Source: Escherichia coli (GTDB lineage Bacteria; Pseudomonadota; Gammaproteobacteria; Enterobacterales; Enterobacteriaceae). From it: a stretch of 64,000 nucleotides of DNA. This document shows, piece after piece, positions 59,858 to 63,547 of this stretch. The stretch lies in NCBI RefSeq assembly GCF_003334315.1, contig NZ_QOWR01000015.1; one strand, 5' to 3'. Below the pieces are notes generated by a model. It did not search any database. It was not told the origin of the DNA and worked only from the letters and a program-made list of their open reading frames with translations. The translations under genes were made by a program, and so were the position numbers. How positions within the stretch are numbered: the first letter of the stretch is position 1; every line of letters begins with the position of its first letter.

Positions 59858-60571
59858 TCAGCTTGTGAAGTGATACCGGCCTTCTTCAGTCATCTCTACT
59901 ATCAGATTGGCCTGACGGCTATTCATCAGCACACGCTCGACATTGGGGCCATCGGTGCGGGCATAAAATGCTTCGGCTACTTGCCGCGTTAATCCTCCCG
60001 CAATTTTACGACTAATCAAGCGCTCCCGCAGAATTTGAGCAGGTGCATGAATAAAAATAGAAAAATCGCAGAAAGATGCCAACTCCAGCCACTTTTCATC
60101 ATCCAGTAACAACCAGTTTCCTTCGACGATGACGAGTGGTGCGGTAACGTGCAACGCATCTTCAACAGGATCATGCTTTTGTCGATCGTACTGCGGCCAC
60201 GTACAATCCCCTTCCATTACCTGGCGCAGATTTTCCACCAGTTTCGCAACGTCAAATGTCTCTGGTGCGCCTTTGTAAGGGCGTAGTTGATGCGCATCCA
60301 GCCAGCTATTGTAATGGTGAAAGCCATCCATCGGGAGCGTCTGAATAGCGGGTAGTTCCGGGTCTTGTTGCGCGAGATATTCCCAGAAGGTGGTCAGGGT
60401 CGATTTTCCCGTTCCCGGCGGAGCGCAAAGAAAAACCACGGTTCGCCGCTGCGGATTTACCGTCTGTAAGGCCGCCAGCTTACGCAATAACGGCTTATGT
60501 ACGTTTTCTATCTCATCATCAGGGTACTGCGCTTGCACGTTCAGCCCATTCACCGTTAATTCAATTTTCAC
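59858..60571 (-). CDS. yggC: P-loop kinase-like protein YggC
   Basis: 237-aa ORF with Walker A motif APPGTGKST; start overlaps the yggD stop. Confidence 0.85.
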   Translation of the reverse strand: MKIELTVNGLNVQAQYPDDEIENVHKPLLRKLAALQTVNPQRRTVVFLCAPPGTGKSTLTTFWEYLAQQDPELPAIQTLPMDGFHHYNSWLDAHQLRPYKGAPETFDVAKLVENLRQVMEGDCTWPQYDRQKHDPVEDALHVTAPLVIVEGNWLLLDDEKWLELASFCDFSIFIHAPAQILRERLISRKIAGGLTRQVAEAFYARTDGPNVERVLMNSRQANLIVEMTEEGRYHFTS

Positions 60572-61077
60572 GGCGTTAATTCCTTTAAGGTGGTCGTTAC
60601 TGCCAGCGTCAGCGCCGTTTTGACCATCCCGCTAAAACGCGCCTCTGACCAGACGGAGAAATCAGCGAACTTCATCGCTTTTAACGCGTCATAGAGCATC
60701 GCATTGCGGGTTATGCTATTGACGTTGCTGATAAAATCCCAGGTCATGTCATCGGCAAATCCGGGCGTTTCATCCTGTTCGTTCAGGTAATGCCAGAACT
60801 GGGAAAAATGCGTGATATCGGCGTACAACCATTTATCCATTTTCCCCAACGCATAAATCAAACGCAGTGCAACATCAATATCGTCAAGCGGGCCGCTTTG
60901 GGCGAGTAACGGCTTCACTGCATATTCCACGATCTCTTCATCGTTATCGACAAACAGCGACGGCAGAAACTGGCGTATCCCCTGGAGCAAAATGGTATGC
61001 GCAGTTTTCATAAATGAAAATAAATTGTCCTGTGCATCCAGTTGCTCAAGCACATCATCTTCTGTCAGCGTCGCCAT
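60568..61077 (-). CDS. yggD: MtlR-family (mannitol-operon-repressor-like) regulator YggD
   Basis: 169-aa ORF. Confidence 0.8.
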   Translation of the reverse strand: MATLTEDDVLEQLDAQDNLFSFMKTAHTILLQGIRQFLPSLFVDNDEEIVEYAVKPLLAQSGPLDDIDVALRLIYALGKMDKWLYADITHFSQFWHYLNEQDETPGFADDMTWDFISNVNSITRNAMLYDALKAMKFADFSVWSEARFSGMVKTALTLAVTTTLKELTP

Positions 61078-61098
61078 TGGTCTTCCGATAGATCACCA

Positions 61099-62064
61099 TC
61101 AATGCAGGGAGTCTATTATATTACACGTTTGGTCCGCGCCGCCGATCAGTAATGTCTGCGTCCGCACCCCATTCGCCGTCTGTTGGATACCGTTCACCAG
61201 CTCACCGCCCGTCACGCCCGTAGCGCTAAAGAGGATATCGTTCCCCCTCACCAGTTCATCGAGCGAGTACACACGGTTAACGTCAACGCCCATTGCCTTG
61301 CAACGCTTGCGCTCCTGCTCTGCAATCTGCCGATTTTCCGTGTAATCCCCTTTAGCCTGGCAAAAGTCAATCAGCTCGGCCTGCATATCCCCGCCTAATG
61401 CTTTAACGGCACAGGCAGAAATCACGCCTTCTGGCGCACCGCCGATGGTGTACATCACATCGTAAGGATTATCCTGCCAGCAGGTCAGCACGCTGGCGGC
61501 GACATCGCCATCCGGCAGGGCAAAAACCTTCACGCCCAGCTGTGTTGCTTCCTCAATCGCGGCACTCAGGCGCGGTTTATCCAGCGTAACCATGCGCAGC
61601 TTATCCAGCGGTTTGCCTAACGCTTTCGCCACGTTGCGCAGGTTGTCCGTCAGAGGCAAAGACAGATCAATCGCGCCCGCCGCCAGCCGATTAACAACCA
61701 GCTTTTTCATATACATATCGGGCGCATGTAACAGGCTATCTCGAGGGGCGAAAGCCATGACCGCCAGCGCATTGCTCTGCCCCATCGCCACCATCCGCGT
61801 GCCTTCAATGGGATCAACCGCGATATCGACTTCTGGCCCATCGCCTTTGCCCACCTCTTCGCCAATCCACAGCATCGGCGCATGGTCAATTTCTCCTTCG
61901 CCGATAACCACTCGTCCACGAAAAGCGACGTCGTTTAATGCCTGGCGCATCGCGGTGACCGCCAGGCCATCAATTTTATTTTTGTCGCCACATCCGGTTT
62001 GCGGCCAGGCAGCCAACGCTGCCTGTTCCGTAACGCGAAATAATGGCCACGCCAGGGACATCAT
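61099..62064 (-). CDS. yggF: Class II fructose-1,6-bisphosphatase (GlpX paralogue) YggF
   Basis: 321-aa ORF; start overlaps the yggP stop. Confidence 0.85.
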   Translation of the reverse strand: MMSLAWPLFRVTEQAALAAWPQTGCGDKNKIDGLAVTAMRQALNDVAFRGRVVIGEGEIDHAPMLWIGEEVGKGDGPEVDIAVDPIEGTRMVAMGQSNALAVMAFAPRDSLLHAPDMYMKKLVVNRLAAGAIDLSLPLTDNLRNVAKALGKPLDKLRMVTLDKPRLSAAIEEATQLGVKVFALPDGDVAASVLTCWQDNPYDVMYTIGGAPEGVISACAVKALGGDMQAELIDFCQAKGDYTENRQIAEQERKRCKAMGVDVNRVYSLDELVRGNDILFSATGVTGGELVNGIQQTANGVRTQTLLIGGADQTCNIIDSLH

Positions 62065-63338
62065 TGCGCGGCCTCCCCGATATCAACGCCAAATTGTGCC
62101 AGCAGATATTTCTCGGCCTGTTCATTCCAGATGCCGTGCGTTTCCTCAACCAGCCGCGCCAACTCTTTAAACAGCGGATCGGTTTTGCCTTTTTCGGCAA
62201 AATCGGCAATGGCAGTGAGCGGCATGGTCACGCCGTTATAAATGAGTTTTTTACCGCCAGGGATATCCGGCAGATTGAGCACGGTTTCTGGCACCGCATC
62301 CAGGCCACCGATATGGGTCACCATAAACGACGGCTGTAACTGCCCAGTGGCGCTAAGGGCAATCGCCTCTTTCATGTCGTCCGTTGAACCGCCAGATGTA
62401 CCGACGACGTGCGTGCTGTTGTAATGGACGTTGTAGAAATTAAACGGCACTTTGAAGTTTTTATCCGTCGGCCCGGCAAAGAAGTTCAGACAGCCATCTT
62501 CCGCCAGTAATTCATCAGCCATCTCAACGACAGCAGGCACCGCCGCATAAACAAAAATGTCATCGAACCCGGCATCTCCTGTCAGCGCCCGCAGCATCTG
62601 GACAGGATCGCTCATCCCTTTGGTATTCACATACACCAGCTCAATGCCTTTACTGGCCGCCAGTTCCACCGGCAGCAGCTTCTGTACCTGCGCCAGACGT
62701 TTGTCGTCGATATCGACCACCACCACCCGCGACGGTTGTATGCCGCCGTTAATGGCGTAATCGATAGCGCCAATGCCCATCGGACCTGCACACGCCAGCA
62801 GTGCAATATTGCCGCCAGGTTTGACGCCCATGCGATGCTCATAAACATATTGCGTGGTGTGATAATTGGCATGATAAGCACCAATAATGCAGCACATAGG
62901 CTCTGCCAGCGACGCCGCAGCAAAATAAGAGCCGTGATACGGTAATACGCAGCCCAAATTAATGGCGATTTCGGGAATAATCATATAAGTGGCATTGCCG
63001 CCAAAATATTCGTAGCTGTAGCCCGCTGAATATCCGCTTGGTAACCCCATCGCCGGTTGCAATACAAAACGCTGGCCTTTTTTATATTTGCCAGTGAGAT
63101 TTTTACCCACTTCGACAATAACCCCGGCACATTCATGCCCGGTAATGACCGGATGATTTTCTAAATCGTCGGGTACGCGTTTATGTTCACTACCGAGTAA
63201 CGCCGCTTTCCAGGTCGATAAACAGACGCTGTCAGAAATTACACTCACCAGTAATTCATTATCGGTAATTTCTGGCAGTTCAAATACGCGCAGACGGACA
63301 TCCCGCTTGCCATAAATAGCAGCAACTTTGGTTTTCAT
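62061..63338 (-). CDS. yggP: Zinc-type alcohol/polyol dehydrogenase-like protein YggP
   Basis: 425-aa ORF with medium-chain dehydrogenase features. Confidence 0.8.
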   Translation of the reverse strand: MKTKVAAIYGKRDVRLRVFELPEITDNELLVSVISDSVCLSTWKAALLGSEHKRVPDDLENHPVITGHECAGVIVEVGKNLTGKYKKGQRFVLQPAMGLPSGYSAGYSYEYFGGNATYMIIPEIAINLGCVLPYHGSYFAAASLAEPMCCIIGAYHANYHTTQYVYEHRMGVKPGGNIALLACAGPMGIGAIDYAINGGIQPSRVVVVDIDDKRLAQVQKLLPVELAASKGIELVYVNTKGMSDPVQMLRALTGDAGFDDIFVYAAVPAVVEMADELLAEDGCLNFFAGPTDKNFKVPFNFYNVHYNSTHVVGTSGGSTDDMKEAIALSATGQLQPSFMVTHIGGLDAVPETVLNLPDIPGGKKLIYNGVTMPLTAIADFAEKGKTDPLFKELARLVEETHGIWNEQAEKYLLAQFGVDIGEAAQ

Positions 63339-63352
63339 TTTTACCTCTGTAA

Positions 63353-63547
63353 TCAGTGTTTATGTTCGGCGGTTAATTGATTAAATAAAGTGTCGAGTTT
63401 TGGATCGCCAATATAGTTATTAATCAATATCAGTGGTTTATCCGTCACACGTTTCACGCGCCCTTCCAGACTGGCATGAGTAACGACGATATCCGCATCC
63501 GCAGGCACGTTTTCTATGGCGTAATGTTTTACTTCAATTGCCAGCCC
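63353..63547 (-). pseudogene. cmtA: 3'-terminal fragment (64 codons) of cmtA, a mannitol-family PTS EIICB gene, truncated by IS1
   Basis: Minus-strand frame reads GLAIEVKHYAIENVPADADIVVTHASLEGRVKRVTDKPLILINNYIGDPKLDTLFNQLTAEHKH then stop at 63353-63355; resembles the C-terminus of a mannitol-type EIIB domain; the frame is cut at 63547/63548 by the IS1 terminus. Confidence 0.6.

Follow-up and report, generated by a model that had tools for sequence, protein, structure and literature searches.

The genes yggP, yggF, yggD and yggC lie at the end of a 64,000-nt stretch of Escherichia coli DNA (NCBI RefSeq assembly GCF_003334315.1, contig NZ_QOWR01000015.1; the whole analysed stretch is referred to as the window), where they follow a remnant of cmtA, a gene of the phosphotransferase system (PTS). 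We consider it very probable that the four genes belong together in one PTS-linked module for a polyol or ketose phosphate, and there is a reasonably good case that they make up the distal part of a six-gene operon providing a PTS-dependent route for a mannitol-like hexitol. The genes have long been catalogued as the 'cryptic mannitol' operon cmtBA-yggPFDC and a sugar or polyol module had already been suspected, which makes the finding as such unsurprising. What is new is circumstantial evidence for a route leading from a hexitol-1-phosphate via a ketose-1-phosphate to a 1,6-bisphosphate, with a P-loop kinase in the place of FruK, and for the mechanism by which YggD exerts regulation. The cmt operon is among the few multi-gene sugar operons of E. 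coli without an assigned substrate; it is near-universal in this species and common to Vibrio, gut Clostridia and spirochaetes. With the comparison presented here, the vague notion of a "cryptic mannitol system" gives way to specific, directly testable predictions.

In the proposed pathway, CmtBA, consisting of a mannitol-family EIIA and EIICB, would import a polyol and phosphorylate it at C1. YggP would oxidise the carbon adjoining the phosphate and thus produce a ketose-1-phosphate, most simply D-fructose-1-phosphate, to which YggC would add a second phosphate, thereby doing the job of 1-phosphofructokinase. The resulting 1,6-bisphosphate could be cleaved by the housekeeping class II aldolase or, alternatively, be dephosphorylated by YggF to fructose-6-phosphate for biosynthesis, as by GlpX in the glp regulon. 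At the cmtB operator, a pair of CRP dimers spaced by 44-45 bp would serve as the docking site of YggD, which the dephosphorylated IIB domain of CmtA would remove from there while transport is under way. In this scheme, we infer every substrate and product, the order of the steps and the mechanism of YggD. That the route runs through fructose-1-phosphate is a proposition to which we give slightly less than even chances. The complete picture, i.e. an undescribed pathway with a SorE-family hexitol-1-phosphate 2-dehydrogenase, a non-homologous P-loop 1-phosphofructokinase (YggC) and a second CRP-docking, transporter-sequestered anti-activator (YggD), is put forward tentatively.

If it were true, YggP would represent a new enzyme activity and YggC a new fold for 1-phosphofructokinase. 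The docking of MtlR on CRP would be the property of a small family and not a one-off, the annotation 'fumarase E' would be overturned, and two propagated RefSeq names would be corrected ('fumE' for yggD and 'glpX' for yggF). For the strain studied here the message is a smaller one: the module is intact and has been disconnected by insertion of IS1.

Gene arrangement and conservation of the cluster

At its end, the window features the gene order fbaA-pgk-epd-yggC-yggD-yggF-yggP-cmtA' of the E. coli chromosome, with all genes on the minus strand. The relevant features are the following:

59858-60571, minus strand: yggC, 237 aa, GTG start (open reading frame listing and direct reading of the strand)
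60568-60571, minus strand: GTGA overlap of the yggD stop and the yggC start (direct reading)
60568-61077, minus strand: yggD (RefSeq 'fumE'), 169 aa
61099-62064, minus strand: yggF, 321 aa
62061-62064, minus strand: ATGA stop/start overlap of yggP and yggF, suggestive of translational coupling (direct reading)
62061-63338, minus strand: yggP, 425 aa
62802-62818, minus strand: sigma-54 motif CTGGCGGCAATATTGCA inside yggP, upstream of yggF and pointing towards it (exact match)
63353-63547, minus strand: 3' remnant of cmtA, last 64 codons (CmtA residues 399-462) plus stop
63548-64000, minus strand: right end of IS1 with its right inverted repeat (IRR, 63548-63574) and the 3' part of insB (63563-63940), continuing beyond the window

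The first-pass annotation, made from the letters of the window and without database searches, had described four minus-strand genes behind a PTS gene remnant, with overlaps at 62061-62064 and 60568-60571. The four genes are indeed intact, the remnant consists of 64 cmtA codons, and both overlap positions proved exact on direct reading of the minus strand. On the same strand, gaps of 14 nt and 21 nt separate cmtA from yggP and yggF from yggD, respectively. Shine-Dalgarno-like purine runs are present ahead of all four starts (yggP, yggF, yggD, yggC), and all four open reading frames are 100% identical to intact annotated coding sequences of E. coli EC13. Simple scans of the minus strand between IS1 and the end of yggC returned neither a sigma-70-like promoter above shuffle expectation nor a terminator-like site. 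Overlaps of 4 nt are common in operons and prove little on their own; support for an operon comes from their conservation: of the 46 loci with yggF, 38 retain the 4-nt overlap of yggP and yggF, and that of yggD and yggC recurs with 4 nt in 41 of 69.

A scan for YggP with one genome per species yielded 80 loci, the genes of which were classified by BLASTP. YggP, a mannitol-type PTS (EIIA plus EIICB) and the YggC kinase occur together in 78 of these species-level loci, and none of the complete scan loci lacks YggC beside YggP and the PTS. The arrangements encountered are:

Enterobacterales, 46 loci: cmtB-cmtA-yggP-yggF-yggD-yggC
Rahnella (5) and Budvicia (1), 6 loci: the Enterobacterales order without yggF
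Vibrionaceae, 17 complete scan loci: cmtB-cmtA-yggP-yggD-yggC followed by a gene for a PHP/YcdX-like phosphoesterase
Clostridia/Lachnospiraceae, 9 loci: EIIA-yggC-EIICB-yggP, without yggD and without a phosphatase gene, PRD regulator in 6 of 9

Besides the 17 complete loci, the Vibrionaceae set was extended by an Aliivibrio fischeri locus (L004) and a broken locus (L072). Judging by this gene content, the unit appears to consist of the six genes cmtB-cmtA-yggP-yggF-yggD-yggC, with PTS, YggP and kinase as the invariant core and the fructose-1,6-bisphosphatase (FBPase) as an accessory. The regulator slot is taken by either YggD or a PRD regulator, and the phosphatase slot is optional and filled by two unrelated enzymes. 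Among the neighbourhood genes of the loci, no aldolase or isomerase is conserved with the cluster in any lineage, and the product of the core should therefore be a central metabolite. Two other candidate links were discarded. Transketolase genes reside near the Enterobacterales clusters and in 4 of 12 Vibrio loci, a neighbourhood that we judge to be ancestral tkt...epd-pgk-fba synteny. A gene for pyrophosphate-dependent phosphofructokinase adjoins the cluster at only two distinct clostridial loci (the near-identical L005/L060, and L080), which is too few. In Rahnella (L050-L054), the yggF-less cmt cluster is situated directly upstream of mtlA-mtlD-mtlR with one 265-aa open reading frame in between, so that two mannitol-type systems are neighbours in these organisms.

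Within E. coli, 5,404 of 5,426 complete genomes contain the region. The window itself holds 64 codons of cmtA, with cmtB lying outside it, and the synteny of EIICB and EIIA genes with the enzyme genes is seen in other E. coli strains as well. Within Escherichia, yggP, yggF, yggD and yggC are under purifying selection, with omega values of 0.02-0.21. Because of these values and the presence in nearly all genomes, the module is not a decaying relic. The first-pass proposal of one polyol or ketose-phosphate module is thus strongly backed, both by synteny in Enterobacterales, Vibrionaceae, Clostridia and spirochaetes and by purifying selection. Its assignment of the four proteins to families (zinc-type polyol dehydrogenase, class II FBPase paralogue, MtlR-like regulator and P-loop kinase) likewise holds throughout in profile and structure searches.

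YggP, YggC and YggF as enzymes of a putative hexitol phosphate pathway

YggP matches Pfam ADH_N and ADH_zinc_N and is a Zn-dependent medium-chain dehydrogenase. Residues C39, H68, E69 and E146 (the catalytic zinc ligands), a GPMG motif and D209 are invariant; because D209 follows the second Rossmann strand, the sequence implies NAD as the probable cofactor. YggP lacks the Cys4 structural-zinc lobe and features an invariant cysteine-free loop, GLPSGYSAGYSYEYFGGNATY, in its place. Sorbitol dehydrogenases also lack the structural-zinc site. Sequence identity amounts to 65-67% between E. coli, Vibrio and Clostridia, and the family is compact: of 1.84 billion cluster representatives, searched exhaustively, 221 reached E<=1e-30, about 25 of them being full-length clusters. 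The AlphaFold2 model (pLDDT 95) superposes on structures of the medium-chain dehydrogenase/reductase (MDR) superfamily at a TM-score of about 0.7. A Foldseek search with this model against the PDB returned only generic MDR enzymes at 16-23% identity, which give no clue to the substrate.

Genomic context is more informative. Over its full length, YggP is 44% identical to a protein (P0248) encoded in a sor-type operon, together with genes for EIIA-man, IIB-sorb, EII-Sor and EIID and for a sorbitol-6-phosphate dehydrogenase of the short-chain dehydrogenase/reductase (SDR) type (428 bits vs. a cutoff of 304). Because of this classic sor operon context, P0248 is predicted to be SorE, L-sorbose-1-phosphate reductase. 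Other distant YggP homologues adjoin rhamnulokinase-like FGGY kinases and a rhamnulose-1-phosphate aldolase fusion, while the contexts of P0245, P0249, P0246 and P0251 are uninformative or their contigs very short. As far as can be judged from the neighbouring genes, the sor, FGGY kinase and rhamnulose-1-phosphate aldolase contexts are all ketose-1-phosphate settings. YggP itself does not have the partners of SorE, a mannose/sorbose-family PTS and an SDR sorbitol-6-phosphate dehydrogenase; a mannitol-family PTS and a P-loop kinase are present in all 78 complete loci. Because of these partners, YggP appears to be a SorE-family paralogue with a different substrate and not SorE itself, and we propose that it acts as an NAD-dependent hexitol-1-phosphate 2-dehydrogenase. 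Should YggP have kept the facial selectivity of SorE, the hexitol phosphate pairing with D-fructose-1-phosphate would be D-mannitol-1-phosphate.

The homology with SorE, which works reductively, also invites the opposite reading. Several annotation pipelines name YggP orthologues 'L-sorbose 1-phosphate reductase', and the PTS might import a ketose as its 1-phosphate, which YggP would reduce to a hexitol phosphate, as in the sorbose operon, with a dehydrogenase encoded elsewhere finishing the route. We consider this improbable. Curated cutoffs place the transporter in the mannitol type, whereas SorE is accompanied by a PTS of the mannose/sorbose type. Sor operons also encode an SDR sorbitol-6-phosphate dehydrogenase, but the cluster has no such second dehydrogenase as a conserved member. 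Moreover, the invariant kinase partner has no role in a reductive route, and the invariant Asp209 suggests NAD over NADPH.

The second enzyme of the proposed oxidative route, YggC, belongs to NCBIfam PRK09270.1-1 (498 bits vs. a cutoff of 402) and has the P-loop fold of PRK, PanK and Udk. Its matches are confined to P-loop families (PRK09270, PanK, Udk), so that it is not a member of the PfkB family. Among solved chains, FrcK-like 3C8U, deposited as 'fructokinase', comes closest (79 bits), followed by pantothenate kinases. Orthologues from E. coli, Vibrio and Clostridia share the Walker A residues G55, K56 and T58 as well as D82, K100, E104, R130, H133, E150, R184, R188 and K189. Walker A, the catalytic acid and the lid arginines of P-loop small-molecule kinases are thus all conserved, and this combination of an invariant Walker A motif with a cluster of basic residues would fit an anionic substrate. 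A paper on comparative genomics (2011) had predicted YggC to be a 'sugar/polyol kinase', with experiments then in progress.

Two spirochaete loci bear on the identity of this substrate. They combine genes for a mannitol-type EIICB (629 and 632 bits vs. the mannitol IICB cutoff of 589), an EIIA, a YggP-like protein (the two being 61% identical to each other), HPr, EI and a PfkB kinase, and they lack yggC. The PfkB kinase from Alkalispirochaeta americana scores 297.7 bits against a curated 1-phosphofructokinase cutoff of 292. These arrangements look like a non-orthologous displacement of YggC by a FruK-type kinase, and such a displacement would argue for a ketose-1-phosphate, most simply fructose-1-phosphate, as the product of YggP and for its conversion to the 1,6-bisphosphate by YggC. 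We therefore propose YggC as a ketose-1-phosphate kinase and functional analogue of 1-phosphofructokinase, because its slot is taken over by PfkB in spirochaetes and not because of family membership.

YggC could also be a regulatory or transport-modulating ATPase, or a kinase acting on the PTS or on YggD, with the route then consisting of the PTS and of YggP producing a ketose-6-phosphate. Such a role is reminiscent of FrcK from Sinorhizobium, which affects fructose uptake and the regulation of polyol transport and is not the fructokinase. The chances of this reading are small, since the PfkB kinases in the spirochaete slot, one of them a 1-phosphofructokinase by curated score, amount to a metabolic replacement; the closest relatives of YggC are small-molecule kinases, and the earlier prediction from comparative genomics points in the same direction.

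In E. coli, yggC also forms a local hot-spot of divergence. DNA identity to strains LR-48 and LST200A is 95.1% (23 synonymous and 12 non-synonymous changes), with 99.6-100% for the neighbouring genes. Compared with other Escherichia clades, dS is 0.5-1.2 for yggC and 0.25-0.34 for yggP and yggF, and yggC has an omega of about 0.1. The species harbours several allele clusters of this gene, with differences of more than 10% between their protein sequences. This pattern looks like old allelic lineages shuffled by recombination.

YggF is a full-length class II FBPase (TIGR00330 glpX, 588 bits vs. a cutoff of 259.3) and matches the E. coli GlpX structures 1NI9 and 3D1R with 374 bits. In a residue alignment to 1NI9, the stretches GEGEID, DPIEGT, DGDV and GGAPEG are identical in YggF and GlpX; we take these to be the catalytic and metal-binding motifs of GlpX. 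FBPase activity of YggF was reported by Brown (2009), as cited in PMC8719807 and PMC3105977, and deletion of yggF is described as reducing growth in anaerobic glycerol fermentation, a mild phenotype. The gene name assigned to yggF by RefSeq/PGAP, 'glpX', collides with that of the true glpX, as seen in three E. coli loci. An FBPase in the operon would make sense as a supply of fructose-6-phosphate when carbon enters at the level of fructose-1,6-bisphosphate. The phosphatase slot is variable. YggF occupies it in most Enterobacterales, Rahnella, Budvicia and Clostridia have none, and in Vibrionaceae an unrelated PHP/YcdX-like phosphoesterase (NF006702, 357 bits) is encoded after yggC. The latter is the constant last gene of the Vibrionaceae operon (L004, L059-L085), and this context may be the first genomic clue to the substrate class of YcdX, namely sugar phosphates.

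As stated in the first-pass annotation, the substrate of the module is not evident from sequence. The true substrate may be a mannitol-like polyol other than mannitol, because mannitol would duplicate the mtl system, and the strong purifying selection likewise argues for a different compound. A heptitol is one possibility; it would lead to a sedoheptulose bisphosphate, and enzymes of the GlpX type are able to act as sedoheptulose bisphosphatases. A literature search retrieved no substrate assignment for yggP, yggF, cmtA, cmtB, yggC or yggD and no route from mannitol-1-phosphate to fructose-1-phosphate.

YggD, the cmtB operator and the weighing of the pathway

YggD is near-identical to the solved chain 3C8G, a 'putative transcriptional regulator' (362 bits), and matches the MtlR structures 6KCR (E 3e-12) and 3BRJ (E 5e-9). 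It scores 333 bits against NCBIfam PRK10022 and 89 bits, i.e. below the cutoff of 149, against the MltR family. We conclude from these comparisons that YggD, with its 169 residues and no DNA-binding domain, is probably a paralogue and not an orthologue of MtlR. A recent study of MtlR (PMC13421365, 2026) established that this protein has no DNA-binding domain either and represses mtl by docking on two CRP dimers. Docking needs CRP sites 43-46 bp apart with an optimum at 44-45 bp, and mutation demonstrated that R167 and L178 are required for the contact with CRP; the site spacing was claimed to be unique to mtl among catalogued CRP operators (PMC13421365). When E. coli MtlR is aligned with six YggD orthologues (23-32% identity), only 17 columns are invariant, and R167 and L178, corresponding to R147 and L158 in YggD, are included among them.

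According to published work, the cmtB promoter binds CRP and is CRP-activated. The cmtB operator is located outside the window and was examined in related genomes (L002 8640-8960 and 51 other loci). Upstream of cmtB in E. coli LR-48, CRP-like sites are centred at -222.5 and -178.5, i.e. 44 bp apart. Pairs of CRP-like sites 44-45 bp apart and about 180-230 bp upstream of cmtB were found in 44 of 52 Enterobacterales loci vs. 0.3% of shuffles, and the spacing is kept though site and spacer sequences differ between species. It is about an even bet that YggD, by analogy with MtlR, acts as an anti-activator of the cmt operon by docking on CRP. In Clostridia, PRD regulators stand in for YggD.

RefSeq labels yggD as 'fumE, fumarase E', a name that is unsupported by family membership or genomic context and that we regard as founded solely on an in vitro screen. 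At E<=0.01, NCBIfam gives no fumarase family for YggD but only PRK10022 and the MltR family, and the relatives of YggD in the PDB are only MtlR-type proteins. A ChIP-exo study, in which YggD is described as 'verified as fumarase E', did not detect a signal for the protein, as would be expected for a YggD-type protein without a DNA-binding domain. 'MtlR-like regulator' fits the evidence on YggD better than 'fumarase E'.

The names in the databases would nevertheless be appropriate if the genes were independent, with YggF as a spare gluconeogenic FBPase, YggD as a fumarase, YggP and YggC unrelated to each other, and the clustering with cmtBA devoid of meaning for a pathway. The RefSeq names 'glpX' and 'fumE', the FBPase activity of YggF together with the growth defect of the deletion strain in anaerobic glycerol fermentation, and the 'verified as fumarase E' statement along with the lack of ChIP-exo DNA binding for YggD are all in line with independence. 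We regard it as quite unlikely, because more than 70 species from three phyla-level groups share the gene order, the stop/start overlaps are conserved, and YggD is exchanged for other regulators in Clostridia and YggF for a phosphoesterase in Vibrionaceae, always at the same locus. Furthermore, YggD matches no fumarase family and has an MtlR fold with the CRP-contact residues kept, and the negative ChIP-exo result is uninformative, as MtlR is without a DNA-binding domain, too.

Several observations weigh against the six-gene operon as a PTS-dependent route for a mannitol-like hexitol. A mannitol route would be redundant with mtlAD of the same genomes, and our literature search found no enzyme assay or growth phenotype tying the genes to a polyol. 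Without regulation, a futile cycle could arise from the presence of both a kinase and a bisphosphatase in the operon. The displacement by PfkB concerns two loci from one phylum, and the second of the two kinases scores below the 1-phosphofructokinase cutoffs; the role of the related kinase FrcK in Sinorhizobium is unclear and possibly regulatory. The CRP sites at cmtB are matches to a consensus, and only 5 of 19 Vibrionaceae loci show pairing at 44-45 bp. Finally, fumarase activity of YggD was reported from an in vitro metabolomics screen (Sevin 2017, as cited in PMC8464067).

Insertion of IS1 and comparison with known systems

The IRR of IS1 has a single exact match in the window, starting at 63548 and abutting the cmtA remnant. 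An InsB-like open reading frame matches IS1A/IS1B transposase genes at 97-100%, and the transposase is oriented in the same direction as the operon. CmtA is split between residues 398 and 399, 21 residues past the active-site Cys377 of the IIB domain. What is left in the window are the C-terminal two-thirds of the EIIB domain, which weakly match the mannitol IICBA model, while full-length CmtA from other strains has 462 residues and reaches 593 bits with the mannitol-type IICB model (cutoff 589). Because IS1 splits the IIB domain and breaks its fold, the transporter is almost certainly dead in this strain. IS1, an element of about 0.8 kb, and the 5' part of cmtA are now located between the cmtB promoter and yggP. 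The first-pass annotation had stated that IS1 makes expression uncertain; beyond that, the element breaks the IIB domain of CmtA. The module of this strain is probably transport-dead and poorly expressed with the enzyme genes still intact, and on the proposed model transport and induction should both be lost. The sigma-54 motif in yggP corresponds to the intragenic site IS35 of a ChIP-seq study (PMC4591121) and could matter for residual expression downstream of IS1.

The window, which is 100% identical to phylogroup-A-like E. coli, has an IS1-cmtA junction that was found in 0 of 5,426 complete E. coli genomes, and at most 6 of the 5,426 have IS1 in or near this part of cmtA. Because the downstream genes are unmutated, we suggest that the insertion is a recent event. 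Independent IS1 insertions at other positions of cmtA were confirmed in strains LR-48 and LST200A. In strain EC13, cmtB is frameshifted; yggPFDC is intact in all three strains. In the other E. coli strains examined, it is thus the transporter genes that get disrupted and not the enzyme genes. That the module is a decaying remnant, literally 'cryptic' and no longer functional in E. coli, might be read from its name, the lack of a recorded polyol phenotype, the IS1 insertions in cmtA here and in a few other strains and the cmtB frameshift in EC13, but is highly improbable in view of the omega values for all four genes, the near-universal presence of the region, the rarity of IS1 in or near cmtA, the 65% identity of YggP across phyla and the conserved operator architecture.

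Comparison with established systems helps to place the cmt operon. FrcK, encoded in the operon for the fructose ABC transporter in Sinorhizobium and belonging to the 3C8U family, shares the kinase family with YggC and is likewise linked to ketose/polyol transport; it differs in having an ABC transporter as partner and no YggP. SorE from Klebsiella and E. coli belongs to the same compact family of Zn dehydrogenases of about 420 residues as YggP, and chemistry at the carbon adjoining the C1 phosphate is proposed for YggP as well. Unlike SorE, YggP is partnered by a mannitol-type PTS and a kinase and not by an SDR sorbitol-6-phosphate dehydrogenase, so that YggP probably works in the oxidative direction. 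In Clostridia and spirochaetes, the loci resemble Gram-positive mtlA-mtlR-mtlF-mtlD operons in their mannitol-type EIICB, their EIIA and, mostly, a PRD regulator, some of these regulators featuring an Mga-type helix-turn-helix; the slot of mtlD, in contrast, is filled by a YggP-type dehydrogenase plus a kinase.

The logic proposed for cmt, conversion of a C1-phosphorylated PTS product to a 1,6-bisphosphate by a dedicated kinase, is that of fruBKA, and a FruK-type kinase occupies the YggC slot in Alkalispirochaeta. YggC with its P-loop PRK/PanK fold would be an analogue and not a homologue of FruK, which has the PfkB ribokinase fold, and the imported substrate would be a polyol instead of fructose. 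With glpFKX, the cmt operon shares a close GlpX paralogue, YggF, and the entry of the operon product into glycolysis at or below fructose-1,6-bisphosphate; YggF differs from GlpX in being an accessory that some other lineages lack and others replace with a PHP/YcdX-like phosphoesterase. The most extensive parallels exist with E. coli mtlADR. CmtA is a mannitol-family protein about 51-52% identical to MtlA from Rahnella, YggD appears to be an MtlR paralogue that keeps R167 and L178, and the CRP-dependent cmtB promoter has CRP-like sites 44-45 bp apart. In contrast to the mtl system, the EIIA of cmt is a separate protein, CmtB, and YggP is a Zn-dependent SorE-family enzyme unrelated to MtlD. Moreover, cmt adds a kinase and a bisphosphatase, which would place the entry into central metabolism at the level of the 1-phosphate and 1,6-bisphosphate and not at fructose-6-phosphate.

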